64,000 bases of DNA from assembly GCA_002395225.1 (NCBI GenBank), contig DGWH01000092.1, forward strand, positions 23,325 to 87,324, written 5' to 3'. This DNA comes from Christensenella sp. UBA4263 (GTDB lineage Bacteria > Bacillota > Clostridia > Christensenellales > Aristaeellaceae). This document shows, piece by piece, positions 1 through 60,419 of the stretch. The notes under the pieces are model-generated. The model saw only the letters and a list, made by a program, of their open reading frames with translations. It did no database searches and was not told the origin of the DNA. Within the stretch, counting starts at the first letter, position 1. Each line of letters opens with the position of its first letter. The translations under genes were made by a program, and so were the position numbers.

Positions 1-2778
1 AATGTTCTGGGCATTACGCCTGCCGTGGGCGATAAGGATGCCATCCTTGCTGCTTACAACGCGGCAAACGGCGGCGAGGGCGAAACGGAAGAAGTTCCTG
101 TGACCACCCATACCGCTTCCGTTAAGGGATTTGATGCTTTCGATGTCAATGTGGATGTCGATGGCAACGGAAAAATCGTCGCGGTTTCCGTTCCCGCACA
201 CAAGGAGACCGAAGGTTTCGGTGCGGATCTGATTGCTGACAAGGCCGTCTTTGATGCACTTGTCGGACAGGATATTGCCACCGCAAAGATTGATGTCAGG
301 ACCGGCGCCACGCTGACCAGCAACGCCATCAATGAGGCACTGTCCAAAGTCGCTGCCGAAGTTTCCGGCGGCGGAGCTGGAAAAACCTATGATGTGACCG
401 GTTTTGCTCCTTTCAAGGTTGCCATTGAACTGGATGACTCCGGCAAGATTGTTTCCGTAACCGTTCCGGAGCATGGGGAAACCCCCGGATTCGGCGCGGA
501 TCTGATCGCCGATACAGCCGTCTTTGACGCACTTGCCGGACAGGATATTGCCGCAGCTCAGATTGACGTGAAGAGCGGTGCCACGCTGACCAGCAATGCC
601 ATCAATGATGCACTGGCACAGGCGGCCAAGGACTTTGCCGGCGGCGGAGATGCGGCCGTCACGGTTCCCGGCGATCCTTATACCGTCAAGGGAATGAACA
701 AGTTCACCATCTATATCGAACTGGATGGGGATAAGATTTCGTCAATCTCTGTTCCTCAGCATGAGGAAACCCCCGGACTGGGTGCCGCGCTCCTGACAGA
801 GGAAGCACTTGCACCGCTGGTCGGGAAATCCATCTCCGAAGCCAAAGTCGACACGGTGTCCGGCTCCACGCTGACCAGCAATGCGCTCAACGCAGCTCTT
901 GGCATGGCTGCCGCTGCCAACGGCTTTGAACATGAGACAGAGGAAGCCCCCAAGGCTGACACATCTGTCAAAGCGTCCTTCTCTTCCGGCTCTGCCAAGA
1001 CAGAGGAAACGAAGACCGAAACCGCCGACAAGGCCGGGAAGGTGACCAGCGTTGATGTGACCGGTTTCCAGGCTTTCACCGTTGAAATCGGCCTGGATGA
1101 GGCAGGGAAGATCACCAGCGTCGTGATTCCCAAGCATGATGAAACACCCGGATTCGGCGCGGACCTGATCGCTGACACGGCTGTCTTTGAAGCGCTCATT
1201 GGCCAGGACATCGCCACGGCTCAGATTGATGTCCGGAGCGGTGCGACCCTGACCAGCAACGCCATCAACGAAGCACTGGCGAAGGCCGCGTCGGAGAATG
1301 GCTTTGCCGCCGAAAAGACCGAGGAAGCCCCTAAGGCTGAGGCATCTGTCAGCGCCTCCTTCTCCTCCGGCTCTGCCAAGACCGAGGAAACAAAACCCGA
1401 ACCCGCCGAACAGGCCGGGAATGTGACCCGTGTTGATGTGACCGGTTTTGCGGATTTCACCGTTGAAATCGGTCTGGATGAGGCAGGGAAGATCACCAGC
1501 GTAGCGATTCCCCAGCATGGGGAAACGCCGGGATTCGGCGCAGACCTGATCGCCGACACCGCCGTCTTTGAAGCGCTGGTCGGCCAGGACATCGCCACGG
1601 CTCAGATTGATGTCCGGAGCGGCGCAACCCTGACCAGCAACGCCATCAACGAAGCGCTTAAAAAGGCCGCAGCGGAGAATGGCTTTGCTGCCGAGAAGAC
1701 AGAAGAAGCCCCAAAGGCTGAGGCATCTGTCAAGGCATCCTTCTCCTCCGGCTCCACAAAAACCGAAGAAACAAAGACTGAAACCGCCGACAAAGCGGGG
1801 AAGGTGACCAGCGTTGAGGTGACCGGTTTCCAGGCATTCACCGTTGAAATCGGTCTGGATGAGGCAGGGAAGATCACCAGCGTGGTGATTCCCCAGCATG
1901 GGGAAACGCCGGGATTCGGCGCAGACCTGATCGCCGACACCGCCGTCTTTGAAGCACTGGTCGGCCAGGATATCGCCACGGCTCAGATCGATGTGAAGAG
2001 CGGTGCGACCCTGACCAGCAACGCCATCAACGAAGCCCTGGCAAAAGCTGCGGCGGAGAATGGCTTTGCTGCCGAGAAGACAGAAGAAGCCCCCAAGGCC
2101 GCGGCATCTGTCAAAGCCTCCTTCTCCTCCGGCTCCACAAAAACCGAAGAAACAAAGACTGAAACCGCCGACAAAGCGGGGAAGGTGACCAGCGTTGAAG
2201 TGACCGGTTTCCAGGCATTCACCGTTGAAATCGGTCTGGATGAGGCAGGGAAGATCACCAGCGTGGTCATTCCCAAGCATGATGAGACACCGGGATTCGG
2301 TGCGGACCTGATCGCCGACACCGCCGTCTTTGAGGCTCTGGTCGGCCAGGATATCGCCACGGCTCAGATCGATGTGAAGAGCGGTGCGACCCTGACCAGC
2401 AACGCCATCAACGAAGCGCTGGCAAAGGCCGCGGCGGAGAATGGATTTGCCGCTGCGGATGACGCTGCTGCGACTGCATCCGAGGCTCAGAATTCCGTTC
2501 CTGCCGAGAAAACCGTCCATGAAGAGGTGACCGGTTTTCAGGCATTCACCGTTGATATTACGGTAGATGGTGAGGGGAAGATCCTCCGTGTAGAGATTCC
2601 CAAACATGAGGAAACACCTGGATTCGGCGCTGACCTGATTGAGGACAAAGCCGTCTTTGAGGCACTGATCGGACAGGAACTTGCAAATGCGCAGATTGAT
2701 GTCAAGAGCGGCGCAACCCTGACCAGCAATGCCATTAACGATGCGCTGAAGCATGCTGCTGAGGAGGTTGGCAAATGA
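1..2778 (+). CDS. rnfG: RnfG-position flavoprotein with at least 8 tandem FMN_bind domains (5' end runs off the window)
   Basis: The frame is open from nt 1; the listed ORF 25..2778 is only the first in-frame start. There are eight copies of the flavinylation-type motif D-x-x-[ST]-G-[AS]-T-L-T-S-N-A-[IL]-N, each within a V-T-G-F..G-K-I..V..P.H.E-T-P-G-[FL]-G module. The stop overlaps the rnfE start (ATGA at 2775-2778). Gene order G-E-A-B matches rnfCDGEAB. Confidence 0.8.
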   Translation, partial: NVLGITPAVGDKDAILAAYNAANGGEGETEEVPVTTHTASVKGFDAFDVNVDVDGNGKIVAVSVPAHKETEGFGADLIADKAVFDALVGQDIATAKIDVRTGATLTSNAINEALSKVAAEVSGGGAGKTYDVTGFAPFKVAIELDDSGKIVSVTVPEHGETPGFGADLIADTAVFDALAGQDIAAAQIDVKSGATLTSNAINDALAQAAKDFAGGGDAAVTVPGDPYTVKGMNKFTIYIELDGDKISSISVPQHEETPGLGAALLTEEALAPLVGKSISEAKVDTVSGSTLTSNALNAALGMAAAANGFEHETEEAPKADTSVKASFSSGSAKTEETKTETADKAGKVTSVDVTGFQAFTVEIGLDEAGKITSVVIPKHDETPGFGADLIADTAVFEALIGQDIATAQIDVRSGATLTSNAINEALAKAASENGFAAEKTEEAPKAEASVSASFSSGSAKTEETKPEPAEQAGNVTRVDVTGFADFTVEIGLDEAGKITSVAIPQHGETPGFGADLIADTAVFEALVGQDIATAQIDVRSGATLTSNAINEALKKAAAENGFAAEKTEEAPKAEASVKASFSSGSTKTEETKTETADKAGKVTSVEVTGFQAFTVEIGLDEAGKITSVVIPQHGETPGFGADLIADTAVFEALVGQDIATAQIDVKSGATLTSNAINEALAKAAAENGFAAEKTEEAPKAAASVKASFSSGSTKTEETKTETADKAGKVTSVEVTGFQAFTVEIGLDEAGKITSVVIPKHDETPGFGADLIADTAVFEALVGQDIATAQIDVKSGATLTSNAINEALAKAAAENGFAAADDAAATASEAQNSVPAEKTVHEEVTGFQAFTVDITVDGEGKILRVEIPKHEETPGFGADLIEDKAVFEALIGQELANAQIDVKSGATLTSNAINDALKHAAEEVGK
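915..2450. repeat. Four near-identical 381-bp (127-codon) tandem repeats inside rnfG
   Basis: Protein units 4-7 (ENGFAAEKTEEAPKA..SGATLTSNAINEALAKAAA) differ by only a few residues. Reverse-strand shadow ORFs restart at 1221, 1602 and 1983, which gives an exact 381-nt period. Confidence 0.85.
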
Positions 2779-3371
2779 AGAAATACGTTAAAATCTTCAT
2801 GAACGGCATTGTCGATGAAAACCCGACATTCCGTATGGTTTTGGGTATGTGTCCGACGCTTGCAATTACCACACTTGCAAGCAATGGCATCGGCATGGGA
2901 CTCGCTGTTACATTTGTTCTGATATTCTCAAATCTGGTTATTTCCCTTCTTCGCAAAGCGATTCCGGATCAGATTCGTATTCCTGCTTTTATCGTGGTTA
3001 TCGCTACCTTCGTTACCATTGTTCAGCTGATCATCAAGGCATTCCTTCCTGCTCTGGATGAATCTCTGGGTGTGTTTATTCCGCTGATCGTGGTTAACTG
3101 TATCATTTTCGGACGTGCAGAGGCATTTGCATTCAAGAATCCGCCGCTGGATGCCGCCGTTGACGGCTTTGGCATGGGAATCGGTTTTACTATTGCGATC
3201 ACGCTGATTTCCTCTGTCCGTGAGATTCTGGGTGTGGGTACCTGGTTCGGCGTTCAGGTGATGCCTGAGAGCTACCTGCCGATGAACATTCTGATCCGTC
3301 CTGCCGGCGGCTTCATCGTCCTCGGTCTGCTTCTGGCTCTGATGAATAAACTGCTGCCTAAGAAGGCGTAA
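2775..3371 (+). CDS. rnfE: Rnf electron-transport complex subunit E
   Basis: 198 aa polytopic membrane protein. The N-terminus NPTFRMVLGMCPTLAIT is typical of RnfE/NqrD. It is translationally coupled to rnfG. Confidence 0.9.
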   Translation: MKKYVKIFMNGIVDENPTFRMVLGMCPTLAITTLASNGIGMGLAVTFVLIFSNLVISLLRKAIPDQIRIPAFIVVIATFVTIVQLIIKAFLPALDESLGVFIPLIVVNCIIFGRAEAFAFKNPPLDAAVDGFGMGIGFTIAITLISSVREILGVGTWFGVQVMPESYLPMNILIRPAGGFIVLGLLLALMNKLLPKKA

Positions 3372-3383
3372 GGAGGAAATGCG

Positions 3384-3959
3384 ATGAATGCTGTTCTTAC
3401 GATTCTGATCGGATCGATCTTCGTTAACAATTTCGCCATGTCGCGTTTCTATGGAATCTGTCCTTTCCTGGGCGTGTCGAAAAAGCTTGAAACGGCTTTC
3501 GGCATGGGCATGGCAGTTACCTTTGTTATGGCGCTTGCTTCTTTTGCCTCCTATCTGGTCAATACGTACCTGCTTATTCCCTTTGATCTTGAGTATCTGC
3601 AGGTCATTGCCTTCATTCTCGTGATTGCCGTTCTGGTTGGTATCGTTGAAATGGCAATCAAGAAAATGTCGCCGTCCCTGTATCAGGCACTGGGTGTCTA
3701 CCTCCCGCTGATTACCACCAACTGCGCCGTTCTGGGTGTCACGCAGCTGAACGTCACCGAGGGATACAACCTTGTGCTCTCCGTTCTGAACGGCGTCGCA
3801 TCTGCCGTCGGCTATACACTGGCAATCTGCCTGTTCGCAGGAATCCGTGAGCGCCTTGAAGTCGGAAATCTGCCCAAGTGGATGGAAGGCTTCCCGGGTG
3901 CCATGATTGCCGCCGGCCTGATGGCTGTTGCCTTCAACGGCTTCAGCGGTCTGATCTGA
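3384..3959 (+). CDS. rnfA: Rnf electron-transport complex subunit A
   Basis: 191 aa membrane protein with the GICPFLGVSKKLETA motif typical of RnfA/NqrE. RBS GGAGGA lies upstream. Confidence 0.9.
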   Translation: MNAVLTILIGSIFVNNFAMSRFYGICPFLGVSKKLETAFGMGMAVTFVMALASFASYLVNTYLLIPFDLEYLQVIAFILVIAVLVGIVEMAIKKMSPSLYQALGVYLPLITTNCAVLGVTQLNVTEGYNLVLSVLNGVASAVGYTLAICLFAGIRERLEVGNLPKWMEGFPGAMIAAGLMAVAFNGFSGLI

Positions 3960-3980
3960 TGAAAGCGAGGAGGAGATGAC

Positions 3981-5096
3981 GTGAGTATCACTGCAATTGG
4001 TATTGCCGCGCTTGTCATGAGTCTGCTGGGTCTGGCATTCGGTGCACTCCTTGGCGTAACGGATAAGGTTTTCAAGGTGGAAACAGATCCGACCTTTGAT
4101 GCACTCCGTGCCTGTCTTCCGGGTGCAAACTGCGGCGCGTGCGGATTCCCCGGCTGCGACGGTTATGCAACCGCTGTGGCCAAAGGCGAGGCAAAGGTTG
4201 GCGCCTGCGCTCCGGGCGGCATGGCGGTTGCCCAGAAAATGGGCGCCATCATGGGTGTCGAAGCCACCCTTGATGCCAAGTATGTCTCAACCGTGGCCTG
4301 CCAGGGCTATGGCGATCACTGCACATACAAGGCCAACTATGAGGGCATTCAGGACTGTATTGCCGCTCAGCTGGTAAACAACGGTTCCAAAACCTGCGCA
4401 TATTCCTGTCTCGGACTGGGAAGCTGCGTCAGCGTCTGCCCGTTTGATGCGATTCACATTGATCCTGAGAAGCACATCGCGGTGGTGGACAAGGATAAGT
4501 GTCAGAGCTGCAGGCGCTGCATCGACATCTGCCCGCAGCATGTACTGACCATGCAGCCCGAGAAGCATGTCGTTGCGCTGTACTGCCACAATCCCGAAAA
4601 GGGACAGGCACTGCGCGCCAAGTGCGACAACGCCTGTATCGGCTGCTCTGCCTGCGCGAAGGCCTGCAACTTCGGTGCCATTGAGATGGTTGGCGATCTG
4701 CCGAAAATCGACTACAGCAAGTGCATTGGCTGTATGGCCTGTGCGGATGTCTGCCCGACCGGTGCCATGACGGCTGAGTTTGATCAGCGGAAAGAGGCCT
4801 ATATCGATCCGGACAAGTGCATTGGCTGCACCATCTGCGCAAAGAACTGTAAGTTTGATGCCATTGAGGGCGAACTGAAGAAAACGCACCGCGTCCTCGG
4901 CGCCTGCACCGGCTGCGGCATCTGCGCGCAGAAGTGCCCGAAGAAAGCCATTACCATGAGGGAGCGTCGTGCCCCCAGAAATCGTCAGGATAAGGCGAAA
5001 AAGCCGGCAACTGCCCCGGTAAAACCGGCTGCACCGAAACCTGCAGCAGCTCCGGTCAAGCCCGCCCCGGCAGCCCCTGCGGCTGACAAAGCCTGA
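3981..5096 (+). CDS. rnfB: Rnf complex subunit B, polyferredoxin type with Pro/Ala/Lys-rich C-terminal tail
   Basis: GTG start after GAGGAGGAG. It has an N-terminal TM helix plus the CGACGFPGC cluster, then five canonical CxxCxxCxxxC motifs and one variant. The last ~45 aa are PATAPVKPAAPKPAAAPVKPAPAAPAADKA. Confidence 0.9.
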   Translation: MSITAIGIAALVMSLLGLAFGALLGVTDKVFKVETDPTFDALRACLPGANCGACGFPGCDGYATAVAKGEAKVGACAPGGMAVAQKMGAIMGVEATLDAKYVSTVACQGYGDHCTYKANYEGIQDCIAAQLVNNGSKTCAYSCLGLGSCVSVCPFDAIHIDPEKHIAVVDKDKCQSCRRCIDICPQHVLTMQPEKHVVALYCHNPEKGQALRAKCDNACIGCSACAKACNFGAIEMVGDLPKIDYSKCIGCMACADVCPTGAMTAEFDQRKEAYIDPDKCIGCTICAKNCKFDAIEGELKKTHRVLGACTGCGICAQKCPKKAITMRERRAPRNRQDKAKKPATAPVKPAAPKPAAAPVKPAPAAPAADKA

Positions 5097-5110
5097 TCGA
5101 GACATCACAA

Positions 5111-5149
5111 AGAAGGAAACCAGCCCGTCTGGCTTCCTTCTTTCATTTT
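5111..5149 (+). terminator. Rho-independent terminator of the rnf operon
   Basis: AGAAGGAAaCCAG-cccgt-CTGGcTTCCTTCT hairpin followed by TTCATTTT. Confidence 0.7.
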
Positions 5150-5396
5150 GTCCCGGGCCGCGAAAACAGTTCCCATTGTGGAATTTGCGGTTATGGTGTA
5201 CAATAGGCGTCGCAGGTTTTAAAAAGGCTAACAGTATGGAGCGGACCTGTCTATGGACAAACGGAAACCATTCTGGTCAGGGAGGCCCTGCCTTAAAAGC
5301 AGCCAGGCTTCTTACTCTGAACAGATATCCCATCCGCGAGGCCGCCCGGATCTGAGCAGGCGGCAAAAGGCATTGAACGAAAAGAAAGAAAACAAC

Positions 5397-6512
5397 ATGA
5401 TTTATCTGGATCACGCGGCCACCTCCCCGATGCCGCGGCGTGTTCTTGAGGCGCAGCAGGCACTTTCAGAGGAAGTCTGGGGAAATCCGGGCGGCATCTA
5501 TCAGGCAGGGCGCCGGGCCCGGCGGGCACTGGATGAGGCCCGGGAAAAGCTGGCCCGGATTCTGGGGGCACAGCCGGGGGAGATCTATTTCACATCCGGC
5601 GGCACGGAATCGGATAACTGGGCCATTATGGGGACGGCACAGGCCTTTCCCGAGCGGCGCCATATCATTACCACGCAGATTGAGCATCACGCGGTCATCA
5701 ATCCCTGCCGGTGGCTGGAGAGTCAGGGCTGGCAGGTGACCTGGCTGAAGCCGGACCGAGAGGGCATCATTTCCCCGGAGCAGGTCCGGGAGGCGATCCG
5801 GCTTGATACCTGCCTGATCAGCATTCAGATGGCAAACAATGAGATCGGAACGATTGAACCGATTGAGGCCATTGGCCAGATCGCAAGGGAAAACGCCATT
5901 CCTCTGCATACGGACGCCGTTCAGGCGGTGGGGCAGATCCCGGTAAACCTCGCAGCATTGCAGGTGGACATGCTGTCCTTCTCGGGGCACAAGTTCGGCG
6001 CGCCCAAAGGCATCGGGGCACTGTACCTGCGATCCGGCACACGGATTGAGCCCTTTGAACGGGGCGGCGGGCAGGAAAAGGGAATGCGTTCCGGCACGGA
6101 AAATGCGGTGGGCGCCTCCCTGATGGCCCTGGCGCTGGAGGAATACCGGAAAGGCGATTTTGAGGTCATGCGTCAAAGGCGCGACCGCTTTATAACCGCG
6201 CTCAGGGAGGCATTCCCGGATGTGAGCATCAACGGAAGCCTTTTGCACCGTCTCCCGGGGAACATGCACTTTTCCATTCCCGGCATTCATGCCGACAGCC
6301 TGCTGATGCAGCTGGATCTGGCAGGCATTGCCGCCTCAGCGGGAAGTGCCTGTACAGCCGGAAGCCTTGAACCCTCGCATGTCATCGCCGCCATTGGCGG
6401 AGATACGGAGGCGGCCAGCCTTCGGCTGACCCTGGGCCATGAAACCACGGAGGATGAACTCGCAGAGGTGTTTCAGTGCCTGAAACGGATTCTTGAAAAG
6501 CGGAAAGGATAA
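5397..6512 (+). CDS. Cysteine desulfurase (NifS/IscS class V aminotransferase)
   Basis: MIYLDHAATSPMP N-terminus, the SFSGHKFGAPKG PLP-lysine motif, and the SAGSACTAG active-site Cys loop. The ATG at 5397 was chosen over the upstream in-frame ATG at 5253 because homologs start at MIYLD. Confidence 0.85.
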   Translation: MIYLDHAATSPMPRRVLEAQQALSEEVWGNPGGIYQAGRRARRALDEAREKLARILGAQPGEIYFTSGGTESDNWAIMGTAQAFPERRHIITTQIEHHAVINPCRWLESQGWQVTWLKPDREGIISPEQVREAIRLDTCLISIQMANNEIGTIEPIEAIGQIARENAIPLHTDAVQAVGQIPVNLAALQVDMLSFSGHKFGAPKGIGALYLRSGTRIEPFERGGGQEKGMRSGTENAVGASLMALALEEYRKGDFEVMRQRRDRFITALREAFPDVSINGSLLHRLPGNMHFSIPGIHADSLLMQLDLAGIAASAGSACTAGSLEPSHVIAAIGGDTEAASLRLTLGHETTEDELAEVFQCLKRILEKRKG

Positions 6513-6515
6513 CAG

Positions 6516-8306
6516 ATGATCTACGGAAACACAGAAGGAATCCGGGATTCGGAACTGGCCAGACTGGAAAGTCTGTACGATTTTGAAGTTGAACCGGACT
6601 GTTTTGCGCCCCGGGAACTGCTGGAGGTGATGACTGAATTTACCGGCATGATCGGGCGGGAACTCTCGGTCTATATCGCGCGTTCCGGCGAGGTACTGGA
6701 TGTGTCGGTCGGCAATCAGAACAGCGTCGGCCTGAGAAACATCCGGCTGAGGCGCAATGCCAATCGCCTGAGCAAGGTGCGTTGTATTCACACGCACCCA
6801 AACGGAGATGCGCATCTCTCTGAGGTGGACATCAGCTCCCTTAAAAGCATGTACTTTGACAGCATGGCGGCCGTCGGCGTTCAGGAGGGGCAGATAACCG
6901 GCGTTCAGGCCTCTTTTCTGACCCTGACGGAAAGCGGCGAACTGGGCGCGGTTCTTACCAAAGTTGTGCAGGCACATGCCATTCCTCAGCGTGCCTGGAT
7001 GGAACGCATTGAGGAAACGGACCGGAGTTCGCTGCTTCCGTCCCGGAACGCCAGCACCCAGGATGAACGGGAACGGGCCGTCCTGGTGAGCATTGAGGAT
7101 GAACAGTCCATTGAGGAACTTGCCGCGCTGGCCGAAACGGCCGGTGCGCTGGTGGTGGGCAAAGTCATTCAGAAAAAATCCCGCCCGGATACGGCCACGT
7201 TCATCGGGCACGGCAAGGCGGATGAACTTTCCCTGTTTGCCCAGGCAAAAGAGGCCGATCTGGTGATCTTTGACGATGAACTCAGCGGCGTTCAGCAGCG
7301 GAATCTTGAGCAGATTCTCGCCGGCACCCGGGTTCTGGACCGGACCGCCCTGATTCTGGATATCTTTGCCCAGCGGGCCCGGTCCCTTGAGGGCAAACTG
7401 CAGGTCGAGATGGCTCAGCTTGTCTACCAGCTTCCGCGGCTGACCGGCCACGGCATTGCACTGTCCCGTCTTGGCGGCGGCATTGGCACCCGCGGCCCAG
7501 GTGAGACGCAGCTGGAGATGGACCGGCGGCGCATCCGCCGGCGCCTGACCGCCCTGCAGAACGAAATCAACCGTCTGGGGGACCAGCGGCGCTTGCGCCG
7601 CGGAAAGCGGGAACGGAATCAGATGAAGACGGTGGCCCTGGTCGGGTATACCAATGCCGGAAAGACGACCCTTCTGAACCGGCTCAGCGGCGAAAGCTCC
7701 TTTGCGGAAAACATGCTGTTTGCCACGCTTGATCCGCTGGTCAGAACCGTTCATTATCCGGATGGAAACGGCAGCTTCCTGCTGATCGACACCGTCGGCT
7801 TTATCAGCAAGCTGCCGCATGCCCTGGTGGATGCGTTCCGTTCCACCCTGGAGGAAACCGTTACGGCCGACCTTCTGCTGGTGGTATCAGACGGTTCCTC
7901 GCCGCAGATGCATGAACAGTACAAGGTCGTCATGGAGGTTCTGCATTCCCTTGAAGCAGACGAAAAGCCGATTCTGCATGTGCTCAATAAGACCGACCTT
8001 GAATCCGGTCCGGATGAAACCGCTTTCCCGGAGGCGGTGCGCGTCAGCGCGCTGACCGGGGAGGGAATGGATCATCTGTTCGCCGAAATTCGGGAAAAGC
8101 TCTGCGATACCACCAGACAGGTCAGGATCACCCTGCCGTATACACAGGCACAGGGGGAGGCCTGGGTTCACAGGAACTGTCATATTCTTGAGGAACAGTA
8201 CACGGATACCGGGTATGACCTCCTCGTGGAGGCGGATGATGTCCTGCTGGGAACGCTTTACCATCAGTTTGACAGAGACTGTATTTCCGTGATTGAAAAC
8301 AGTTAA
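6516..8306 (+). CDS. hflX: GTPase HflX with N-terminal JAB/MPN-like extension
   Basis: HflX core: GKLQVEMAQL, G1 GYTNAGKTTLLN, DTVGFISKLPHALVDAFRSTLEE and NKTD. The N-terminal ~150 aa carry H-T-H-P-N-G-D-A-H-L-S-E-V-D, matching HxHx7Sx2D. Confidence 0.85.
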   Translation: MIYGNTEGIRDSELARLESLYDFEVEPDCFAPRELLEVMTEFTGMIGRELSVYIARSGEVLDVSVGNQNSVGLRNIRLRRNANRLSKVRCIHTHPNGDAHLSEVDISSLKSMYFDSMAAVGVQEGQITGVQASFLTLTESGELGAVLTKVVQAHAIPQRAWMERIEETDRSSLLPSRNASTQDERERAVLVSIEDEQSIEELAALAETAGALVVGKVIQKKSRPDTATFIGHGKADELSLFAQAKEADLVIFDDELSGVQQRNLEQILAGTRVLDRTALILDIFAQRARSLEGKLQVEMAQLVYQLPRLTGHGIALSRLGGGIGTRGPGETQLEMDRRRIRRRLTALQNEINRLGDQRRLRRGKRERNQMKTVALVGYTNAGKTTLLNRLSGESSFAENMLFATLDPLVRTVHYPDGNGSFLLIDTVGFISKLPHALVDAFRSTLEETVTADLLLVVSDGSSPQMHEQYKVVMEVLHSLEADEKPILHVLNKTDLESGPDETAFPEAVRVSALTGEGMDHLFAEIREKLCDTTRQVRITLPYTQAQGEAWVHRNCHILEEQYTDTGYDLLVEADDVLLGTLYHQFDRDCISVIENS

Positions 8307-8366: not shown

Positions 8367-9197
8367 ATGTTTTTGGATTCGCTGGCCGGTGTCCTTCTCG
8401 GATTCACGGTGGCCTTCCAGTCCTGGGGATTCATGATGCCGCATCAGAATCCCATGGATACGCTGATTCTGGTCAATAAGCAGAACAGAGCGCCCGTTCA
8501 GCCGGTCATGCTGGTAAAACCGGATGTGCCGCCGGTGGAGGAACGTATCTCGGAAAACATCTATATGCGCCCGGATGCCGCCGCGGCACTTGAACAGATG
8601 TTTGAGGCGGCAAAACAGGACGGGATCATGCTTTATGCGCTCAGCGGTTTTCGCAGCTATGCCACCCAGAAAGCAATTTACAACCGGAAGGAACGGCCGG
8701 AATACGGGATTTCCAGCGTCGCCAAGCCGGGGTATTCGGAACACCAGACCGGCCTGGCCATGGATTTTGAGGGCGAATCGACCCTGGGAAAAGGGCTGAT
8801 AGAGGCCATTGCGGATTCGCCTGAGGGCATCTGGATGGCGCAGCACTGCTGGGAATATGGCTATATTCTCCGCTACCCGAAGGAAAAGGAATCCATCACG
8901 GGCTATATCTACGAGCCCTGGCATATCCGGTACGTGGGAACAGAGGCCGCGCTTGAAATCCGTGATCTGGGTGTCACATTTGAGGAATATATCCAAATGA
9001 TCCGAAGCGAGCGGGTCAGGAGTCTTGAACAGGAGGAGATTATTGTTGAACAGAATACGACTGGGACTGATGATGCTGGGTCTGCTGATCCTGACGGGAA
9101 CCGGGTTGGCGGAGCGTCTGGATCTGGCGACGATGGAAAACGCGGAGCAGGCACAGACGCTGATCGAGAAAACATGGGATTATCCGATTCCCTATGA
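8367..9197 (+). CDS. D-alanyl-D-alanine carboxypeptidase, VanY/peptidase M15B family (copy 1)
   Basis: SGFRSY, SEHQTGLAMD and EPWHIRYVG motifs. The low-complexity C-terminal tail overlaps the next gene by about 150 nt. Confidence 0.75.
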   Translation: MFLDSLAGVLLGFTVAFQSWGFMMPHQNPMDTLILVNKQNRAPVQPVMLVKPDVPPVEERISENIYMRPDAAAALEQMFEAAKQDGIMLYALSGFRSYATQKAIYNRKERPEYGISSVAKPGYSEHQTGLAMDFEGESTLGKGLIEAIADSPEGIWMAQHCWEYGYILRYPKEKESITGYIYEPWHIRYVGTEAALEIRDLGVTFEEYIQMIRSERVRSLEQEEIIVEQNTTGTDDAGSADPDGNRVGGASGSGDDGKRGAGTDADRENMGLSDSL

Positions 9198-9792
9198 GCT
9201 CCTTAAAACCAGTGACTATATCGTGCTGGCCAATAAGACGCATCTGCTGGATGAGAACTATATTCCGCAGGACCTGGTGAAGGTAAAGGTACGGAAAATC
9301 AGTTCAACGCCCATTGAGATGCGGGAAGCGGCGTCGGATGCGCTTACGGCGCTGTTTGAGGCCGCCAAGGCAGACGGGATTTCCCTGTATGCCCATTCCG
9401 GATACCGGAGTTACCGGACCCAGAAGACGATGTACTACAACCGCCTGAAGAAGAACAACGGGAAAGACGACGGCGTTGTGGCGGTGCCCGGTTCATCGGA
9501 CCATCAGACCGGTCTGGGAATTGATGTCATCAACAAGGCCGGCATCGGAAAGAAATTTACCAGTGCGTTCGCAAAGACGAAAGAGGGCATCTGGCTGGCC
9601 GAACACTGCTGGGACTTCGGATTCATTATCCGCTACCAGAAAGATAAGGAAGATCTGACCGAGATCATCTATGAGCCCTGGCATCTTCGCTACGTGGGTA
9701 TTCAGGTTTCCGAATACCTCCGCCAGAGCAACCTCTGTCTGGAAGAGTTTACGGAGGAATGGCAGAGGGCCGTGCAGGCGTATGAAAACTGA
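9043..9792 (+). CDS. D-alanyl-D-alanine carboxypeptidase, VanY/peptidase M15B family (copy 2, secreted)
   Basis: SGYRSY, SDHQTGLGID and EPWHLRYVG motifs. The signal peptide is LGLMMLGLLILTGTGLA. The start is probably TTG at 9043/9046 after AGGAGGAG at 9031-9038; the listed ORF starts at 9025. Confidence 0.75.
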   Translation: MLNRIRLGLMMLGLLILTGTGLAERLDLATMENAEQAQTLIEKTWDYPIPYELLKTSDYIVLANKTHLLDENYIPQDLVKVKVRKISSTPIEMREAASDALTALFEAAKADGISLYAHSGYRSYRTQKTMYYNRLKKNNGKDDGVVAVPGSSDHQTGLGIDVINKAGIGKKFTSAFAKTKEGIWLAEHCWDFGFIIRYQKDKEDLTEIIYEPWHLRYVGIQVSEYLRQSNLCLEEFTEEWQRAVQAYEN

Positions 9793-12586: not shown

Positions 12587-12725
12587 GCAGACAGCCCTTT
12601 TTCATCACCCCGGGAAAACCCGAACAGCCTGGGCAGCGGCCATGCAAAAAAAATAACTGTTGTTTCTTTTGACATGGTATTATATAATGTTTTCTGGATT
12701 AGTTTTGCCTGAATCAGGAGGATGT

Positions 12726-13532
12726 ATGTACAGATTACTTCTTGTGACAGACAAGCCGGATATATGCACGCTTTACAATGAATATCCGGATTGGGAAGCC
12801 CAGGGCTTTGAAAAACCAACTGTAATGAAGAATGCCGAAGCGGGCATTCATCAGTTGACGAATGGGCATTTTGACGTGGTCTCATGGCTTCTGCCCGTCA
12901 GTGAAGGAAAGCAGATGGCTTCGTTTATTACCAAGAAGCCGGACATCATGGGAATTGAAACAATGCGGGATGCCCGGCTGCTTCGGCGGGAGCTGGGAAA
13001 TGCCCGGCGCGAGCTGGCGACAAGGGATGCCCAGCGGCAGGTTTCACAGCCGGATGATGTCATGAAAGTCATGAGTTCCCGCTTTTTCTGCGATCTTCTC
13101 CGTGGAGACGGATTTACGGAAAAGCAGGTGGATGAAAAACTGCATACGCTGGGACTGGTGGATATCGATCCGGTCAGGCCCATTGCCATTGCCTCTTTCC
13201 GTCTGCCTCAGGGAGATTTCTTTCTGGCCGAGGTCTGGCAGTATGGCCGGGACCGGCTTGAAAACGCACTTCGGAATATCTTTGAAAACACGGGAGACCG
13301 GGACATTTATTGTGTCATGCTCATGATCAACCCGCATCACATGCGCATTCTGGCCATTCCGCATAAGGATATTTCAGAAAAAGACGTGTATGCGGAGATG
13401 GTTTCGCACCTTGAGGCGTGCAGGACCAATCTTGAACAGTATTTTGAATTAACCATGAATATCAGGCGGATGCATGCCTATTCGAGTCTTTATGAGCTGG
13501 CGCTGGAGAACCTTCAGAGAACAGCCCATTAA
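12726..13532 (+). CDS. Hypothetical protein with receiver-like N-terminus
   Basis: The ATG at 12726 follows AGGAGG. The N-terminus MYRLLLVTDKPD...FDVVSWLL resembles a CheY-like fold and no DNA-binding motif was seen. The function call is weak. Confidence 0.45.
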   Translation: MYRLLLVTDKPDICTLYNEYPDWEAQGFEKPTVMKNAEAGIHQLTNGHFDVVSWLLPVSEGKQMASFITKKPDIMGIETMRDARLLRRELGNARRELATRDAQRQVSQPDDVMKVMSSRFFCDLLRGDGFTEKQVDEKLHTLGLVDIDPVRPIAIASFRLPQGDFFLAEVWQYGRDRLENALRNIFENTGDRDIYCVMLMINPHHMRILAIPHKDISEKDVYAEMVSHLEACRTNLEQYFELTMNIRRMHAYSSLYELALENLQRTAH

Positions 13533-18534: not shown

Positions 18535-19876
18535 ATGTATGCGATTTTTTCGTTCGGTTGTCCCAGGCACGCTGTGCCTCGGCCATCAGCTCATCCTGTG
18601 CAATCAGGGCGTCCTGCTGCTGCTTTTTCGCTTCCTGATCATGCGCCACGGCCAGCATCAGGCGAATCCGGTTCTCCTGATTGACCTTTGTGGCGGAGAG
18701 ATCATAGTCAATGGGCACAATGTTGATTCCGGGATGAACCTCGGTCAGGCGCCGGATCATGCCCTTGCCGTTGATGTGATTGGGGAGACAGCCAAAGGGC
18801 TGGGTACAGACGATGTTCTCATAGCCGTTTTCCGCCAGTTCCAGCATCTCCGCGGTCAGCAGCCATCCTTCGCCCATCTTGGAGCCGTATCCGATGACCC
18901 CTTTGACCAGGGACTTGATATGACTGTACCGGGTGGGCGGGACAAACCGGTCATGTCCTTTGAACGCCTCGATCAGGATGCGTTCCATCCGCTGACAGTA
19001 CCGGAGGAACAGCTTGCAGAAAATGAGCTTGAAAACGTTGCCGCCATACAGATGGATATCCTCAATCCGGTTGTCGATTTTGAAGAGGATGAATCCCATA
19101 ATGCCCGGCAGCATGTACTCACAGTCCTGTTTTCTCAGGAACTCCTCCAGGCCGTTATTGCCAAGCGAGGAGTATTTTACGTAGATTTCACCGACAATGC
19201 CCACCTTCGTCTTCGGCTCACGGCTGCGCTCAATGGCATCAAACTCGTTGACGATCTGCCGGAGATTTTCACGCATCTCCCTGTATCCGAGGCCTTTGCC
19301 CACGTTAAACTGCTCAATGAGACGCTCATTCCATGTCTCCACCAGTTTATCCGTCTGGCCTTTCTGGTATTCATACGGCCGGGTCTGATTGGAGGCACAC
19401 ATGATGCAGTCCCCGTAGATCAGCGAGGCAATGAGCTGACGCAGAAGGGGAATGGTCAGCTTAAATCCGGAGGCGTGTTCAAGGCCGGAAAGGTTGGCAG
19501 AAATGACGGGAATATAGTCAAGACCGGCTTTCCGGAGCGCCTTCCGCAAAAGGAAAATATAGTTGCTGGCACGGCAGCCGCCGCCGGTCTGGGTAATGAT
19601 CAGGGCAGTTTTGTGCAGATCATATTCGCCGGAATGCAGGGCATCCAGGAACTGCCCGATGACCAGCAGCGCCGGAACACAGGTATCATTGTGGACGTAT
19701 TTCAGTCCCTCTGCCATGACATTCGGCCCGTGGTTTTTGAGCACAACGGCATTGTACCCGTTCAGCCGCAGCACCTTTTCAATCAGGGAAAAATGGAATT
19801 CCAGCATATTGGGGACCAGAATGGTATAGCCCTGGTCCCGCATTTCCTTTGTAAATTCTACATGTTGTATGTCCAC
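18533..19876 (-). CDS. 2-hydroxyacyl-CoA dehydratase-related (DUF2229-like) partner protein of the activase
   Basis: 447 aa. Its start abuts the stop of the upstream activase gene (19876/19877). The family call is from recollection of the C-terminal part of ~1400-aa 'CoA-substrate-specific enzyme activase' proteins. Confidence 0.55.
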   Translation of the reverse strand: MDIQHVEFTKEMRDQGYTILVPNMLEFHFSLIEKVLRLNGYNAVVLKNHGPNVMAEGLKYVHNDTCVPALLVIGQFLDALHSGEYDLHKTALIITQTGGGCRASNYIFLLRKALRKAGLDYIPVISANLSGLEHASGFKLTIPLLRQLIASLIYGDCIMCASNQTRPYEYQKGQTDKLVETWNERLIEQFNVGKGLGYREMRENLRQIVNEFDAIERSREPKTKVGIVGEIYVKYSSLGNNGLEEFLRKQDCEYMLPGIMGFILFKIDNRIEDIHLYGGNVFKLIFCKLFLRYCQRMERILIEAFKGHDRFVPPTRYSHIKSLVKGVIGYGSKMGEGWLLTAEMLELAENGYENIVCTQPFGCLPNHINGKGMIRRLTEVHPGINIVPIDYDLSATKVNQENRIRLMLAVAHDQEAKKQQQDALIAQDELMAEAQRAWDNRTKKSHT

Positions 19877-22831
19877 TCACATGCCCTCCTTGCGCTTACC
19901 GGCTTCCTGCTGGTCAATCGCTGCAAACAGAGACCGGAGACGGATACGAACCGCACCAAGATTGGTGATTTCATCAATTTTGATCTGTGTATAGATTTTC
20001 CCGGCATCCTCCAGAATTTCTCGGACCTCATCGGTGGTAATCGCATCCACGCCGCAGCCGAAGGATACCAGCTGAACCAGATTGATATCCGGCTGAGAGG
20101 TAATGTACTTGGCAGCTGCGTACAGACGGGAATGATAGGTCCACTGATTCAGGACATGCACCGGTTCCTTATGCATATACGCGCTCAGCGAGTCCTCGGT
20201 GATGACCGCGGCGCCAAATCCGGCAATCAGGCGGTCAATTCCGTGATTGATTTCAGGATCCACATGGTACGGCCGGCCGATGAGGCAGATGATGCGGCGT
20301 TTCTCGGCGCGGGCCCTGTCCATCATTTCCGCACCGGTTTTCCGGATGTCCTGCATCCATTCCTCATAGGCCGCATAGGCCCGGTCACAGGCATGGTGCA
20401 CTTCCGCCCGGGTGATGTCCGGAAAGTGTTTCTTCAGGATATGATAGAACTTTCCGGGGAAATGATGCCGGTGGTCAATGCCCACATAGTCATGGATAAA
20501 CCGGATATTCCGCACCGCAGGCATATTGGCCGAGATGACCTCCGGATAATACGCCACCACCGGGCAGTTATAGTGATTATCGCCCAGCTGCTCATCCATA
20601 TTGTAGGACATGCAGGGGTAGAAGATGGTATCAAGTCCCTGATCGATCAGCCACTGAATATGGCCGTGCAGCAGTTTGGCCGGGAAACAGACCGTGTCCG
20701 AGGGGATGGTGGCCTGTCCGGAAATGTACAGCTCCCGGGTGGAATAGGGGGACACCACCGGATCAAAGCCCAGATCCGTGAACAGCGCATGCCAAAACGG
20801 GAGCAGCTCAAACAGATTGAGTCCCATGGGAATGCCGATCCGGCCTCTGCGTGGATGCTCGGGGTGCGCATTTCGAAGGGCCGTGATTTTGGCCTGCTTG
20901 TAGGCATACAGGTTGAGCCCGTCGTCCTTTTTCGCCCCGGTTACCGGGCGGTCGCAGCGGTTGCCGCTGATGTATTTCCGTTTGTCGCCAAAGTTGTGCA
21001 CCGTGAGACGGCAATGGTTTTCGCACAGGCCGCACCGGACCTCCTTGACGGAGTGCTGGAACTGGTCGATGGCCTCAAGATCCAGAATGGTGCTCTGGCC
21101 CGGATGAATCCCACGCTGGGTCCTGGCGTACAAGGCCGCGCCGTAGGCACCCATCAGCCCGGCAATGTCCGGCCGGATCACCTCGACCCCCAGTTCCTTT
21201 TCAAACGCACGGAGGACCGCATCATTGAGGAACGTGCCGCCCTGCACGACAATTCGTTTTCCCAGCTCTTCCGGACGGCCGCAGCGAATGACCTTGTAAA
21301 GGGCATTCTTGACAACGGAGATGGACAGACCGGCAGAGATGTCCGTAATATCCGCGCCGTCTTTCTGGGCCTGCTTGACCGAGGAATTCATGAATACGGT
21401 GCAGCGGCTGCCCAGATCCACCGGCCGCCTGGCAGCCAGGCCAAGCTGCGCAAAATCCGCAATGGGGTAGCCCAGGGCTCCGGCAAATGTCTGCAGGAAG
21501 GACCCGCAGCCGGAGGAACAGGCCTCATTCAGGAAGATGTTGTCAATGGCCCCGTTATGGATCTTAAAGCATTTGATGTCCTGTCCGCCGATATCGATAA
21601 TAAAATCGACATCGGGGAGAAACGAACGGGCAGCTTCGAAATGGGCCACCGTTTCAACCAGACCGAAATCCACGCCAAACGCGTTCCGGATCAGGTCCTC
21701 ACCGTAACCGGTGACCGCGCCGGCGAGAATGTTCCAGGAGGGATATTTGGTCCGCACATCCCGGATAAAATCAAGCACATGGGGAACAGGGTCGCCCTCA
21801 TTGCCCTGATAGCGGGTCAGCAGCAGCTGACCGTCCCGGGAGACGACCACGGACTTGATGGTGGTGGAACCGGAATCAATGCCCAGATACACATCGCCGG
21901 AATAGGTGTCCGGATCAAGAACCGGCACCTTTGACCGGGCATGCCGCCGGCGGAATTCAGCCAGTTCCTTTTCTGACTCAAACAGCGGGGGAAGCGCATT
22001 ATAGGATTCCGTGCTGTGAAAGGCATCGATCGCATCAATGCATTCCTTCAGCCGAACCGGCGCAGAGGGCTGCTTGGCCGCACCGAACGCCACATAATAC
22101 AGCGAATTTTCCGGGCAAACCCCTTTCAGATGAAGCACCTCATCAAAACAGGCCCGCAGCTCGCTGAGGAAGGTCAGGGGGCCGCCGAGATACAGCACGT
22201 TCCCTTCAATGGGCCGTCCCTGGGCCAGCCCGGCAATGGTCTGGTTGACCACCGCCATGAAAATGGAACGGGAGATGTCCTCATGTCTGGCGCCCTGGTT
22301 GAGGAGCGGCTGGACATCCGTCTTGGCAAAAACGCCGCAGCGGGAGGCGATGGTATAGGTCTTTTCGGCCCGTGCCGCCGCCTCGTTCATATCCGTGGGG
22401 GTCGTATTGAGAAGGGTCGCCATCTGATCAATAAACGCACCCGTGCCGCCTGCACAGGATCCGTTCATCCGGACCTCCAGCGTCCCCTGAAGAAACAAGA
22501 TTTTGGCATCCTCGCCGCCCAGCTCAATGATGCAGTCCGTCCCCGGCATCAGCGTATCTGCGGCCACCTTCGTCGCATAGACCTCCTGAACAAAGGACAG
22601 TCTGGCGCCAAGGGCAAGGCCCATGCCGGCAGAACCGGAAATGCTGATACAAACAGGCTCATCATGGATAAACTCCTGATTAAGCCGGGTGAGAAACTCC
22701 TTGGTTTTCTGTGTTATGAGTGAGTAATGACGCTCGTAACAGGAATAGAGGATGGAATCATGCTCATCGAGAACAACGCACTTGATCGTCGTAGAGCCGA
22801 TATCCAGGCCGATTCTGTACTGATTTGCCAT
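19877..22831 (-). CDS. Double BcrAD/BadFG-type ATPase ('CoA-substrate-specific enzyme activase') with dehydratase-like C-terminal domain
   Basis: It has two actin-fold ATPase modules: GLDIGSTTIKCVV...GGEDAK and GIDSGSTTIKSVV...GGQDIK. The start at MANQYRIGLDIGS (22831) was preferred over the listed 23038. Confidence 0.7.
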   Translation of the reverse strand: MANQYRIGLDIGSTTIKCVVLDEHDSILYSCYERHYSLITQKTKEFLTRLNQEFIHDEPVCISISGSAGMGLALGARLSFVQEVYATKVAADTLMPGTDCIIELGGEDAKILFLQGTLEVRMNGSCAGGTGAFIDQMATLLNTTPTDMNEAAARAEKTYTIASRCGVFAKTDVQPLLNQGARHEDISRSIFMAVVNQTIAGLAQGRPIEGNVLYLGGPLTFLSELRACFDEVLHLKGVCPENSLYYVAFGAAKQPSAPVRLKECIDAIDAFHSTESYNALPPLFESEKELAEFRRRHARSKVPVLDPDTYSGDVYLGIDSGSTTIKSVVVSRDGQLLLTRYQGNEGDPVPHVLDFIRDVRTKYPSWNILAGAVTGYGEDLIRNAFGVDFGLVETVAHFEAARSFLPDVDFIIDIGGQDIKCFKIHNGAIDNIFLNEACSSGCGSFLQTFAGALGYPIADFAQLGLAARRPVDLGSRCTVFMNSSVKQAQKDGADITDISAGLSISVVKNALYKVIRCGRPEELGKRIVVQGGTFLNDAVLRAFEKELGVEVIRPDIAGLMGAYGAALYARTQRGIHPGQSTILDLEAIDQFQHSVKEVRCGLCENHCRLTVHNFGDKRKYISGNRCDRPVTGAKKDDGLNLYAYKQAKITALRNAHPEHPRRGRIGIPMGLNLFELLPFWHALFTDLGFDPVVSPYSTRELYISGQATIPSDTVCFPAKLLHGHIQWLIDQGLDTIFYPCMSYNMDEQLGDNHYNCPVVAYYPEVISANMPAVRNIRFIHDYVGIDHRHHFPGKFYHILKKHFPDITRAEVHHACDRAYAAYEEWMQDIRKTGAEMMDRARAEKRRIICLIGRPYHVDPEINHGIDRLIAGFGAAVITEDSLSAYMHKEPVHVLNQWTYHSRLYAAAKYITSQPDINLVQLVSFGCGVDAITTDEVREILEDAGKIYTQIKIDEITNLGAVRIRLRSLFAAIDQQEAGKRKEGM

Positions 22832-22973
22832 TGATAATCCCCTTTGCGTAAATCTATGGTTCCAACTGATGCTGTCCTGTTTTGCTTTCTCAGGCGTAAC
22901 ATGGCACGCTTTTTTTCTCTGCTGGTAAGAAAAAGACATAAAAATATAAAGGGACAGACTCAATCGAAACGAT

Positions 22974-23002
22974 ATTATAAGCGATTCCGTTAGGTTTGAC
23001 AA
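22974..23002 (-). promoter_or_regulatory. Promoter of the activase operon
   Basis: On the minus strand: TTGTCA, a 17-nt spacer, then TATAAT. Confidence 0.55.
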
Positions 23003-23034
23003 GCTCGACTTTCCCCGGGTCAATCCTCCGCCGT

Positions 23035-23069
23035 GCAAAAAAGACAGCCTGCAGTTTGTGCAGACTGTC
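23035..23069 (-). terminator. recR terminator
   Basis: Minus strand: GACAGTCTGCA-caaac-TGCAGGCTGTC followed by TTTTTTG. Confidence 0.7.
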
Positions 23070-39439: not shown

Positions 39440-40297
39440 ATGTTCAAACAAGTTTGCCGTTTTTTTCCCGTCTGGATTATTCTGATTCTGCTTTTTGCCT
39501 CAGCCTGTGCAGAACCCATCACCATCTGCGGGGCAGAGTTTGATACAGAGGATGAATACATCGATTTCGGAAAAGTCAAGGTAGAGAACATCCAGGAACT
39601 TGCCGAAGCGATTCCGAAAATGCCCAATCTTCGAAAAGTAGACATGTTTGCCACCAATATCAAGAAGGAAAACATGGCATATCTTTTTGATACGTTTCCT
39701 GAGGTAACCTTTGGGTGGACCATCCATATCTGGGAACATACCCTCCGTACGGACCAGACAGCCTTTTCCACGCTGCACGGTTCCAGCCCGACTCCGCCTC
39801 ACACCGAGAAAGATTTCGATGTCCTTCGCTACTGCAAGCAGCTGAAGGCGCTTGATCTGGGACACAACTGGATTGAGGATATTTCCTTCCTCGAATATGT
39901 GCCGGACCTTGAGGTTCTGATTCTCGGACGAAATCAGATCAAGGACATTTCTCCGATCGCCGACCTGCATCATCTGGTGTACCTTGAGCTGTTCAGCAAT
40001 CATATCAAGGATGTCTCACCGCTTGCCGGTCTGACCTCTCTCAGAGATCTGAACCTTTCAAACAATCCCATTGAAGATCTGACCCCGCTGATGGGGATGA
40101 AATGGCTTGACCGTCTCTGGCTTGGCTTCTTTATGAATTATCCCAAAGAACAGGAAGCGGAAATCAAGGCCGCACTTCCCGAATGTGAGTTTTTCTGGGA
40201 CTGGGGCCCGACTGCAGGAACATGGAGAGAACATCCTCATTATTTTGAGCTCTATGATTTCTTCAGGACAAACGTTTATGTGCCGTTTAAGGAGTAA
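39440..40297 (+). CDS. Secreted leucine-rich-repeat protein (copy 1)
   Basis: A signal peptide followed by about five 22-aa LRRs (LDLGHNWIEDISFL, LILGRNQIKDISPI, LELFSNHIKDVSPL, LNLSNNPIEDLTPL). Confidence 0.8.
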   Translation: MFKQVCRFFPVWIILILLFASACAEPITICGAEFDTEDEYIDFGKVKVENIQELAEAIPKMPNLRKVDMFATNIKKENMAYLFDTFPEVTFGWTIHIWEHTLRTDQTAFSTLHGSSPTPPHTEKDFDVLRYCKQLKALDLGHNWIEDISFLEYVPDLEVLILGRNQIKDISPIADLHHLVYLELFSNHIKDVSPLAGLTSLRDLNLSNNPIEDLTPLMGMKWLDRLWLGFFMNYPKEQEAEIKAALPECEFFWDWGPTAGTWREHPHYFELYDFFRTNVYVPFKE

Positions 40298-60408: not shown

Positions 60409-60419
60409 GAGGTAAAACG

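Follow-up and report, generated by a model that had tools for sequence, protein, structure and literature searches.

The DNA analysed here is a 64,000-nucleotide (nt) stretch from Christensenella sp. UBA4263 (contig DGWH01000092.1), hereafter the window, which begins inside a gene encoding a long chain of flavin mononucleotide (FMN)-binding domains. We found that this gene is rnfG of an rnfCDGEAB operon, encoding the ferredoxin:NAD+ oxidoreductase ion pump Rnf, in an uncultured gut Clostridia bacterium. Its full-length product of 1101 amino acids (aa) consists, in order, of an N-terminal membrane helix, a linker helix, a canonical RnfG FMN domain and eight extension modules, and this multi-domain nature is certainly real. 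The protein is a new, well-resolved example of a known, experimentally uncharacterised class, the multi-flavinylated RnfGs. We put at about 60% the probability that its flavin tail passes electrons from Rnf to acceptors outside the membrane by way of a tethered relay.

Frame 1 of the plus strand contains no stop from nt 1 until the TGA at 2776–2778. A first-pass annotation of this DNA had pointed out that the open reading frame (ORF) is open to nt 1 and that the protein might be longer. Indeed, 176 further residues lie upstream and contain the membrane helix and a ninth, canonical FMN domain. P0001, a 1101-aa protein obtained by protein search, is essentially identical to the window translation. 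In its contig (locus L001) window nt 1 corresponds to nt 10529, and 12 of 12,778 bases differ, all 12 of them within the repeat array described below. A second 1101-aa sequence, P0122 from an 87.8-kb contig of an NCBI genome, shares the window's own variant of module 7 and is therefore the window's full-length protein. Residue numbers below refer to this 1101-aa protein (P0122/P0001).

The translation of the window part, run against Pfam as the first-pass annotation had suggested, gave eight separate FMN_bind (PF04205) stretches (whole-protein E = 3.2e-107), and the full protein gave nine (E = 1.1e-123). Each of the nine domains carries one D-x-x-[ST]-G-[AS]-[ST] motif; those of the extension modules read IDVRTGATLT, IDVKSGATLT, VDTVSGSTLT, IDVRSGATLT (twice) and IDVKSGATLT (three times). 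Thus, the annotation's count of at least eight domains holds for the window, and so do all of the motifs it listed, while the total for the full protein is nine and the folded module spans ~82–85 aa, not the 95 it had given. We set aside weak Pfam co-matches to SurA_N, SBDS_domain_II and Inhibitor_I78, since they overlapped the FMN_bind modules and none had an individually passing stretch. The protein contains only two Cys, and the heme motif CxxCH occurs neither in it nor in its 120 best homologues. Additionally, a Pfam and motif search of the protein found no LPXTG/sortase motif and no wall-binding domain.

The part of the protein encoded upstream of the window is a true RnfG. Residues 6–174 align end to end with RnfG of C. 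tetanomorphum (7zc6_G), the flavin site reading ISGASISS against ITGATITS, and residues 4–174 align with the solved RnfG chains 9eri_G, 7zc6_G and 8ahx_G, starting at the membrane helix. Within the canonical module the motif is DTISGAS, and Ser158, aligned to the Thr of 7zc6_G, is the predicted FMN acceptor. The NCBIfam rnfG model TIGR01947 scored 158.5 bits on the window part (cut-off 102) and 101.3 bits on the isolated N-terminal 201 residues, which is 0.7 below the cut-off, with model positions 2–186 of 187 covered. Lys7 and Arg11 stand ahead of the N-terminal hydrophobic stretch. By homology to the RnfG anchor, whose C-terminal domain is outside in the solved complexes, the tail would be located on the outer face of the membrane. 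The canonical RnfGs of C. tetanomorphum, A. woodii and A. vinelandii (7ZC6 chain G, 9ERI chain G and 8AHX chain G) share with this protein a membrane helix, a linker helix, an FMN_bind domain with a flavinylated Ser/Thr and a gene position between rnfD and rnfE. However, they are 187–237 aa long and carry one FMN, whereas the present protein has ~925 residues and eight FMN_bind modules more.

The first-pass annotation had assigned the gene to the rnfG slot of rnfCDGEAB and had noted that its stop overlaps rnfE; both flanks agree with this. ATGA start/stop overlaps are found at both ends of rnfG (rnfD stop with rnfG start, rnfG stop with rnfE start), and the three genes that follow in the window are these:

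2775–3371, plus strand: rnfE (Pfam Rnf-Nqr, E = 2.9e-67; TIGR01948, 242 bits, cut-off 213), its ATG at 2775–2777 overlapping the rnfG stop.
3384–3959, plus strand: rnfA (TIGR01943, 257 bits, cut-off 229).
3981–5096, plus strand: rnfB, 371 aa, with an N-terminal iron-sulfur domain and six Fer4 stretches (TIGR01944, 179.5 bits, cut-off 68.7).

Directly upstream of rnfG lie rnfC (TIGR01945, 466 bits) and rnfD (TIGR01946, 284 bits), so that the gene order in L001 is rnfC, rnfD, multi-domain rnfG, rnfE, rnfA, rnfB. RnfD retains an SGAT site of its own. Upstream extension, also proposed in the first-pass annotation, thus recovered the N-terminal membrane anchor together with rnfC and rnfD and brought to light no second single-domain rnfG. 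A separate canonical rnfG is absent from the operon, as the N-terminus of this very ORF supplies the canonical module.

The extension modules lie in the window part of rnfG and are arranged as follows:

1–2778, plus strand: 3' part of rnfG, residues 177–1101, encoding all eight FMN_bind modules of the extension; another 528 nt at the 5' end of the gene lie upstream of the window.
109–357, plus strand: extension module 1, residues 213–295 (hmmsearch envelope), predicted acceptor Thr280 in DVRTGAT, predicted local distance difference test score (pLDDT) 81–90.
382–630, plus strand: extension module 2, residues 304–386, predicted acceptor Thr371, preceded by a 7-aa Gly-rich linker.
673–915, plus strand: extension module 3, residues 401–481, of divergent type, predicted acceptor Thr466 in DTVSGST.
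935–2453, plus strand: tandem array of four 381-bp units (Tandem Repeats Finder, 89% matches), holding modules 4–7.
1045–1290, plus strand: extension module 4, residues 525–606, predicted acceptor Thr592.
1426–1674, plus strand: extension module 5, residues 652–734, predicted acceptor Thr719.
1807–2055, plus strand: extension module 6, residues 779–861, predicted acceptor Thr846.
2188–2436, plus strand: extension module 7, residues 906–988, predicted acceptor Thr973, with copy-specific variants missing from L001.
2515–2763, plus strand: extension module 8, C-terminal, residues 1015–1097, predicted acceptor Thr1082, with no sortase motif after it.

Modules 1–3 follow one another with a period of 91–95 aa and are separated by short Gly-rich linkers of 7 and 13 aa. 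Modules 4–7 have a period of 127 aa (381 bp), each unit consisting of a 42–43 aa linker rich in E, K, T, A and S and an 85-aa module, and the linker ahead of the last module is 25 aa long. The E/K/T/A-rich linkers of the first-pass annotation are therefore a property of modules 4–7, not of the short, Gly-rich first linkers. All eight extension modules are distant from the canonical domain of the same protein (24–29% identity) and range from 45 to 100% identity among themselves. Modules 4–7 are 89–100% identical to each other. Modules 1, 2 and 8 are 62–74% identical to the other extension modules except module 3, which is only 45–50% identical to the rest. A module resembling module 3 was present in each of the six relatives compared, and it was the best match every time (57–82%).

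In a 67%-identical relative (P0003), modules 0–3 and 8 each found their best match at the same position (74–88%), module 8 matching the last module of that protein at 79%. Additionally, the C-terminal end of the protein has invariant columns across the 120 homologues. The middle modules behave differently, with 86–100% identity within each protein as opposed to 73–79% between the window protein and P0003. Since these modules are more alike within than between proteins, the sequence comparison indicates that the middle repeat has either expanded in a lineage-specific manner or undergone concerted evolution.

Comparison of the four middle units with each other revealed that, in the module part, 18–31% of synonymous sites differ compared with 1–7% of non-synonymous sites. 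The pooled ratio of non-synonymous to synonymous differences (pN/pS) between the four repeats is ~0.16. For the linkers it is 0.18, and thus the linkers are also conserved at the protein level. Each repeat copy is under purifying selection, and the repeats are not a product of chance. Over the array the minus strand carries a 670-aa ORF (742–2754) and a series of three 125-aa ORFs (1221–2360); none of these has a Pfam match, and we rejected them as by-products of the repeat.

To describe domain counts and motif conservation we used the 120 best homologues (alignment A1). Seven domains were found in 93 of them, eight in 22, nine in three, ten in one (P0004, 1246 aa) and six in one (P0055, 614 aa, N-terminally cut). 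With the exception of the truncated P0055, every homologue opens with the same anchor and canonical module. A locus scan that took one genome per species yielded 46 related loci in 42 species genomes, all of them metagenome-assembled genomes (MAGs) of uncultured Clostridia from ruminant, human, chicken and rabbit guts, some bearing the names Christensenellales, Candidatus Ventricola or Candidatus Onthenecus. In 18 of the 46 loci the operon is complete from rnfD to rnfA, and 16 of these continue into rnfB. A contig end truncates the remaining 28, which have rnfC/rnfD or rnfE/rnfA/rnfB on the side that is present. Wherever the contig reaches, gene order is that of L001 in all 46. Closest among the genomes is RGIG8456, a MAG from water-deer abomasum (99% identical), in which the partial protein is labelled 'FMN-binding protein' by NCBI. 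Multi-domain RnfG is thus a lineage-wide trait.

One locus outside this pattern, L047 from a distant, uncultured Oscillospiraceae MAG, encodes at 5986–7440 a 484-aa RnfG with three full-size modules of canonical RnfG type in a normal rnfCDGEAB operon. Each of its modules has GYGG/GYHG and ETPG/ETAG, and the middle one reads ISNATVSS, without the motif Gly. Domain multiplication in RnfG therefore arose in more than one way.

The acceptor position is occupied by Ser or Thr in 867 of 870 modules from the 120 homologues, and the whole motif region is nearly invariant. In most relatives the extension modules have SGVT instead of SGAT (577 of 748), and the first, canonical module usually has AGAT, without Ser/Thr at motif position 4. 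The window protein is unusual in having canonical SGAT-type motifs (SGAT, TGAT or SGST) in all eight extension modules. Taken with the canonical site, the motifs predict nine sites for the flavin transferase ApbE in this protein.

An AlphaFold2 model built with a 120-sequence alignment has a helix at residues 2–49 followed by an alpha/beta domain. The modules were predicted with pLDDT of 80–93 and the long linkers with pLDDT of 24–30, and the overall predicted template modelling score (pTM) was 0.29. In this model the modules are folded beads on unplaced linkers, with no confident mutual arrangement. Foldseek matched RnfG chains at template modelling (TM) scores of 0.53–0.64 on the target (7zc6_G, 0.64). 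The extension modules matched the crystal structure of CbFMN4 domain 1 (8p2b) at TM 0.67–0.74, or 0.65–0.74 when that of SaFMN3 domain 2 is included, and a sequence search likewise matched them to CbFMN4 domain 1 (E = 3e-5).

The first-pass annotation had pictured the flavins in series as a wire akin to a multihaem cytochrome. This picture does not suit the model, and we rejected a rigid wire of packed cofactors in favor of independent, tethered beads on the basis of the AlphaFold confidence pattern. Any relay would run by collisions of tethered domains rather than along a fixed cofactor chain. A diffusive relay lacking a built-in potential gradient fits better, given that the model leaves the linkers unplaced and that the middle modules are close to identical. 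As a rough estimate, eight domains of ~3 nm and 254 linker residues could span tens of nm, which is of the order of a Gram-positive wall.

Neither the class nor the idea of a side-branch is new. Both were published in 2021 in a survey of 31,910 genomes (Méheust, Huang, Rivera-Lugo, Banfield and Light; eLife 10:e66878, PMC8238504); the first-pass annotation had pointed to flavinylation surveys that mention multi-FMN_bind proteins. The sections of that paper on RNF describe clusters with multi-flavinylated RnfGs, propose a second electron path to extracytosolic acceptors and liken these proteins to the multihaem cytochrome of methanogen Rnf. The present protein fits the description in every testable respect: it has more than one FMN-binding domain and is encoded in an RNF cluster. 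By prediction it would also lie outside the cytosol and be flavinylated by ApbE. Those sections highlight a Christensenellales subset with a multihaem cytochrome domain; here, CxxCH was found in 0 of 120 homologues. The same sections give such RnfGs no detailed anatomy and do not mention the nine domains, the conserved scaffold with a variable middle repeat or the strain-level repeat differences, and the portion of the supplement text that we searched held no match to this lineage. The first-pass annotation knew of no characterised Rnf complex with such a subunit, and the literature searched contains no experimental work on a multi-domain RnfG.

Experiments are available for free-standing relatives of the modules. 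Tong et al. (2023; BBA Adv, PMC10339131; PDB 8P2B, 8P2A) found that ApbE covalently flavinylates the three-domain SaFMN3 and the four-domain CbFMN4, that reduced SaFMN3 reacts with O2 and that directional transfer is not evident. These proteins resemble the extension modules in their small module fold (TM 0.65–0.74), the D-x-x-S-G-A-T motif and the flexible loops between domains. They differ in having three or four domains and in being encoded outside Rnf, beside flavin transferase genes. Additionally, an electron donor is implied here by the fusion to RnfG, but not for them. Structures that AlphaFold predicted for multi-flavinylated proteins were described as 'beads-on-a-string-like' by Huang et al. 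(2024; PMC11334425). Passages of a 2025 review of Rnf and Nqr describe RnfG as a mobile outer-face flavin domain, carrying one covalent FMN and swinging between RnfA/E and RnfD; the word 'flavinylated' is never used in that review (PMC12174285). We take these properties to make RnfG the logical branch point.

The nearest functional analogue is MmcA, the multihaem cytochrome of Methanosarcina acetivorans Rnf, which is likewise a multi-cofactor redox protein on the outer face of Rnf. As related in parts of these two papers, MmcA is thought to carry Rnf electrons to methanophenazine or to extracellular acceptors (PMC12174285; PMC8238504). It differs in that its haems are packed in one fold and it is a separate gene product, archaeal and without sequence relation. 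Multihaem conduits in general are analogues in concept only, since here there is no CxxCH and the beads lack a confident arrangement. A further comparison is offered by Listeria. Its surface lipoprotein PplA has two FMN_bind domains, undergoes ApbE-like flavinylation and delivers electrons to extracellular acceptors, being fed by Ndh2, demethylmenaquinone and EetA/B. In contrast, Rnf itself would feed the tail of the present protein, and the anchor is the RnfG helix, not a lipobox. Genes of the Listeria type of locus (PplA, Ndh2, EetA/B, DmkA/B, FmnA/B) were absent from the window and from the 10 kb upstream of it.

From these comparisons we infer the following mechanism. ApbE would attach FMN to the Ser/Thr of all nine motifs on the outer face. 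The canonical RnfG flavin, which normally shuttles electrons between the iron-sulfur cluster of RnfA/E and the flavin of RnfD, may also pass them on to the first module of the tether. This flavin is the likely branch point, since no other Rnf cofactor is at once mobile and exposed to the outside. Electrons would then pass from module to module as flexibly tethered domains collide, in the manner of a bucket brigade and not of a rigid wire, and would reach acceptors in or beyond the cell wall, or run in reverse. Rnf would in this way gain a side-branch with no need for quinones. The architecture, operon position, motif conservation, purifying selection and lineage spread are all directly observed; flavinylation, outside topology, the electron relay and the identity of the acceptor are what the mechanism supposes.

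The number of domains has to be considered separately from their presence, because the 381-bp repeats might have been mis-joined or mis-counted during assembly, in which case the true count would be below or above nine. Among near-identical assemblies (the 90% cluster together with P0002 at 95% identity), complete proteins are 727, 850, 854 and 1101 aa long, with 6, 7, 7 and 9 domains in P0002, P0123, P0125 and P0001/P0122, respectively, and the lengths differ by whole 127-aa units. Such spread is what mis-assembly could produce, and so are the contig ends in or beside the multi-domain rnfG at 28 of 46 related loci, a contig (NODE_858) that begins within the gene at window nt 2372 and the confinement of all 12 differences between the window and L001 to the array. 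Against this, exact repeats in the gene reach 80 bp at most, and every array copy has many private synonymous differences (proportion of synonymous sites differing, 0.18–0.31). Module 7 of the window contains a patch found in no other copy, whereas at that patch L001 matches its preceding copy exactly. Two assemblies agree on the 1101-aa length, and the shorter versions also differ outside the array and therefore belong to other strains. Repeat collapse is the usual error of short-read assembly, which makes nine more likely a minimum. The multi-domain nature itself recurs in more than 100 independent assemblies, one of them a 2.05-Mb contig. An assembly artefact thus seems improbable to us. 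Nine domains are well supported for this strain and are if anything a minimum, and the repeat number probably varies between strains. Window positions 935–2453 resemble a variable-number tandem repeat inside a respiratory-complex gene.

If the array is real, the tail might serve an end other than electron export. Reduced tethered flavins could react with trace O2 and so protect a strict anaerobe, scavenging oxygen or generating peroxide with electrons supplied by Rnf. Reduced SaFMN3 is readily re-oxidised by O2, and its authors suggest O2 scavenging or H2O2 production (PMC10339131); the related loci all come from gut MAGs (ruminants, humans, chickens, rabbit), and no dedicated acceptor protein is encoded nearby. 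We nevertheless consider this unlikely, as reactivity with O2 is general to reduced flavins, one or two exposed flavins would be enough, and the conserved layout of 7–10 modules with a positionally fixed module 3 and last module would go unexplained. Alternatively, the tail could be a redox buffer, storing up to 16 further electrons per RnfG and smoothing swings in ferredoxin and NADH without any external acceptor. The single potential of the three SaFMN3 flavins, which gives no directionality, would suit a capacitor, as would the 89–100% identity of the middle modules, which suggests similar potentials, and the lack of a partner gene nearby. However, the capacity would be tiny against the metabolic electron flux, a store outside the membrane would be exposed to oxidants, and the long conserved linkers (pN/pS 0.18) and variable module number point to reach and not to capacity. 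We give this explanation little credence.

Least probable of all, to the point of being hard to entertain, is that the tail is not redox-active, with modules that stay unflavinylated in vivo and act as a spacer, an adhesin or a surface antigen of variable repeat number. Differences in repeat number between strains are common for surface proteins, and the SGVT of most relatives might impair flavinylation; an Ala-to-Val change reduced flavinylation to ~50% in Klebsiella fumarate reductase (reviewed in PMC12052999). Yet a spacer would not be expected to keep the acceptor Ser/Thr in 867 of 870 modules within a nearly invariant motif region, all eight extension motifs here are of the canonical SGAT, TGAT or SGST kind, and the homologous modules of CbFMN4 and SaFMN3 have been flavinylated experimentally.

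Several points weigh against electron export through the tail, which we still prefer. Pfam tables and ORF scans covering the 64-kb window and the 10 kb upstream of it found no ApbE (PF02424), and two unannotated ORFs, one of 325 aa upstream and one of 290 aa at 12660–13532, have no Pfam match. The ApbE motifs GGIAKG and ATSG, patterns unvalidated on known ApbE and thus a weak probe, were also absent from ~558 kb of window and related loci. A functional Rnf needs ApbE for both RnfD and RnfG, and ApbE is therefore expected elsewhere in the genome. No extracellular reductase, wall-binding domain or sortase signal is encoded in or beside the gene, and the neighbouring genes include no candidate for an acceptor or partner protein. 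The literature searched reports neither flavinylation nor electron transfer nor an acceptor for a multi-domain RnfG, and one midpoint potential, -184 mV, was measured for SaFMN3, whose authors conclude that electron flow has no built-in direction (PMC10339131). Draining electrons at RnfG would bypass the NAD+ branch, with no obvious energetic benefit. The presence of spoIVA beside the operon in a relative suggests an endospore-forming Firmicute and is no proof of a thick wall. Finally, the copy number rests on short-read assemblies.

The surroundings of the operon were also surveyed. In relatives, an HtrA-like protease and SpoIVA are encoded in the 3.3 kb that separate mutS2 from rnfC, which ruled out a flavin-related gene in that insertion. 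Directly after rnfB, at 5253–6512 of the window, lies a gene for a cysteine desulfurase of the NifS/IscS type; a NifS-like gene is found downstream of rnfB in most related loci that reach that far, sometimes after a serine hydroxymethyltransferase gene. Promoter and terminator scans of positions 1–6600 gave counts no higher than those for shuffled sequence, and Rfam and tRNA scans returned only two tRNAs, both far from the locus.

Elsewhere in the window, positions 6516–8306 encode a 596-aa HflX GTPase whose conserved HflX domains begin at residue 196; its N-terminal extension of ~195 aa has no significant Pfam match and a faint one to Prok-JAB (E = 0.0099). Two adjacent genes at 8367–9792 encode VanY-type D-alanyl-D-alanine carboxypeptidases (276 aa, and about 189–255 aa). 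At 18539–23038 a 984-aa minus-strand gene (BcrAD_BadFG ATPase and DUF2229) and a 1131-aa plus-strand open frame overlap; public annotation has the minus-strand gene only. Lastly, a leucine-rich-repeat gene is paired with a NAGPA gene (PF09992, phosphodiester glycosidase-like) at both 39440–41178 and 59422–61292, in opposite gene order.

Export of electrons through the flavin tail can be taken further, and here we go no higher than a tentative suggestion. Rnf might act as a quinone-independent extracellular respiratory complex, in which ferredoxin electrons hop along a length-adjustable flavin chain across the wall while ions are still pumped. The strain-variable repeat number (6, 7 or 9 domains) would adjust how far the chain reaches to suit envelope thickness or niche, and module 3 might have a specific role, for example wall contact or partner docking. 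Purifying selection on the linkers (pN/pS 0.18) would, in such a complex, likewise point to specific roles for them.

The value of this protein lies in a well-resolved example with some new anatomical detail, and not in a new concept. Unlike multi-flavinylated proteins in general, it has its electron donor named, by the fusion to RnfG. The protein thus offers a well-defined case for the proposed flavin counterpart of multihaem cytochromes. In many anaerobes that have no quinones or cytochromes, Rnf is the main energy-conserving complex of the membrane. If it is true that the tail exports electrons, such bacteria could send them straight from ferredoxin to acceptors outside the cell, and models of how they balance fermentation, how much energy they gain and how they interact in the gut would change.

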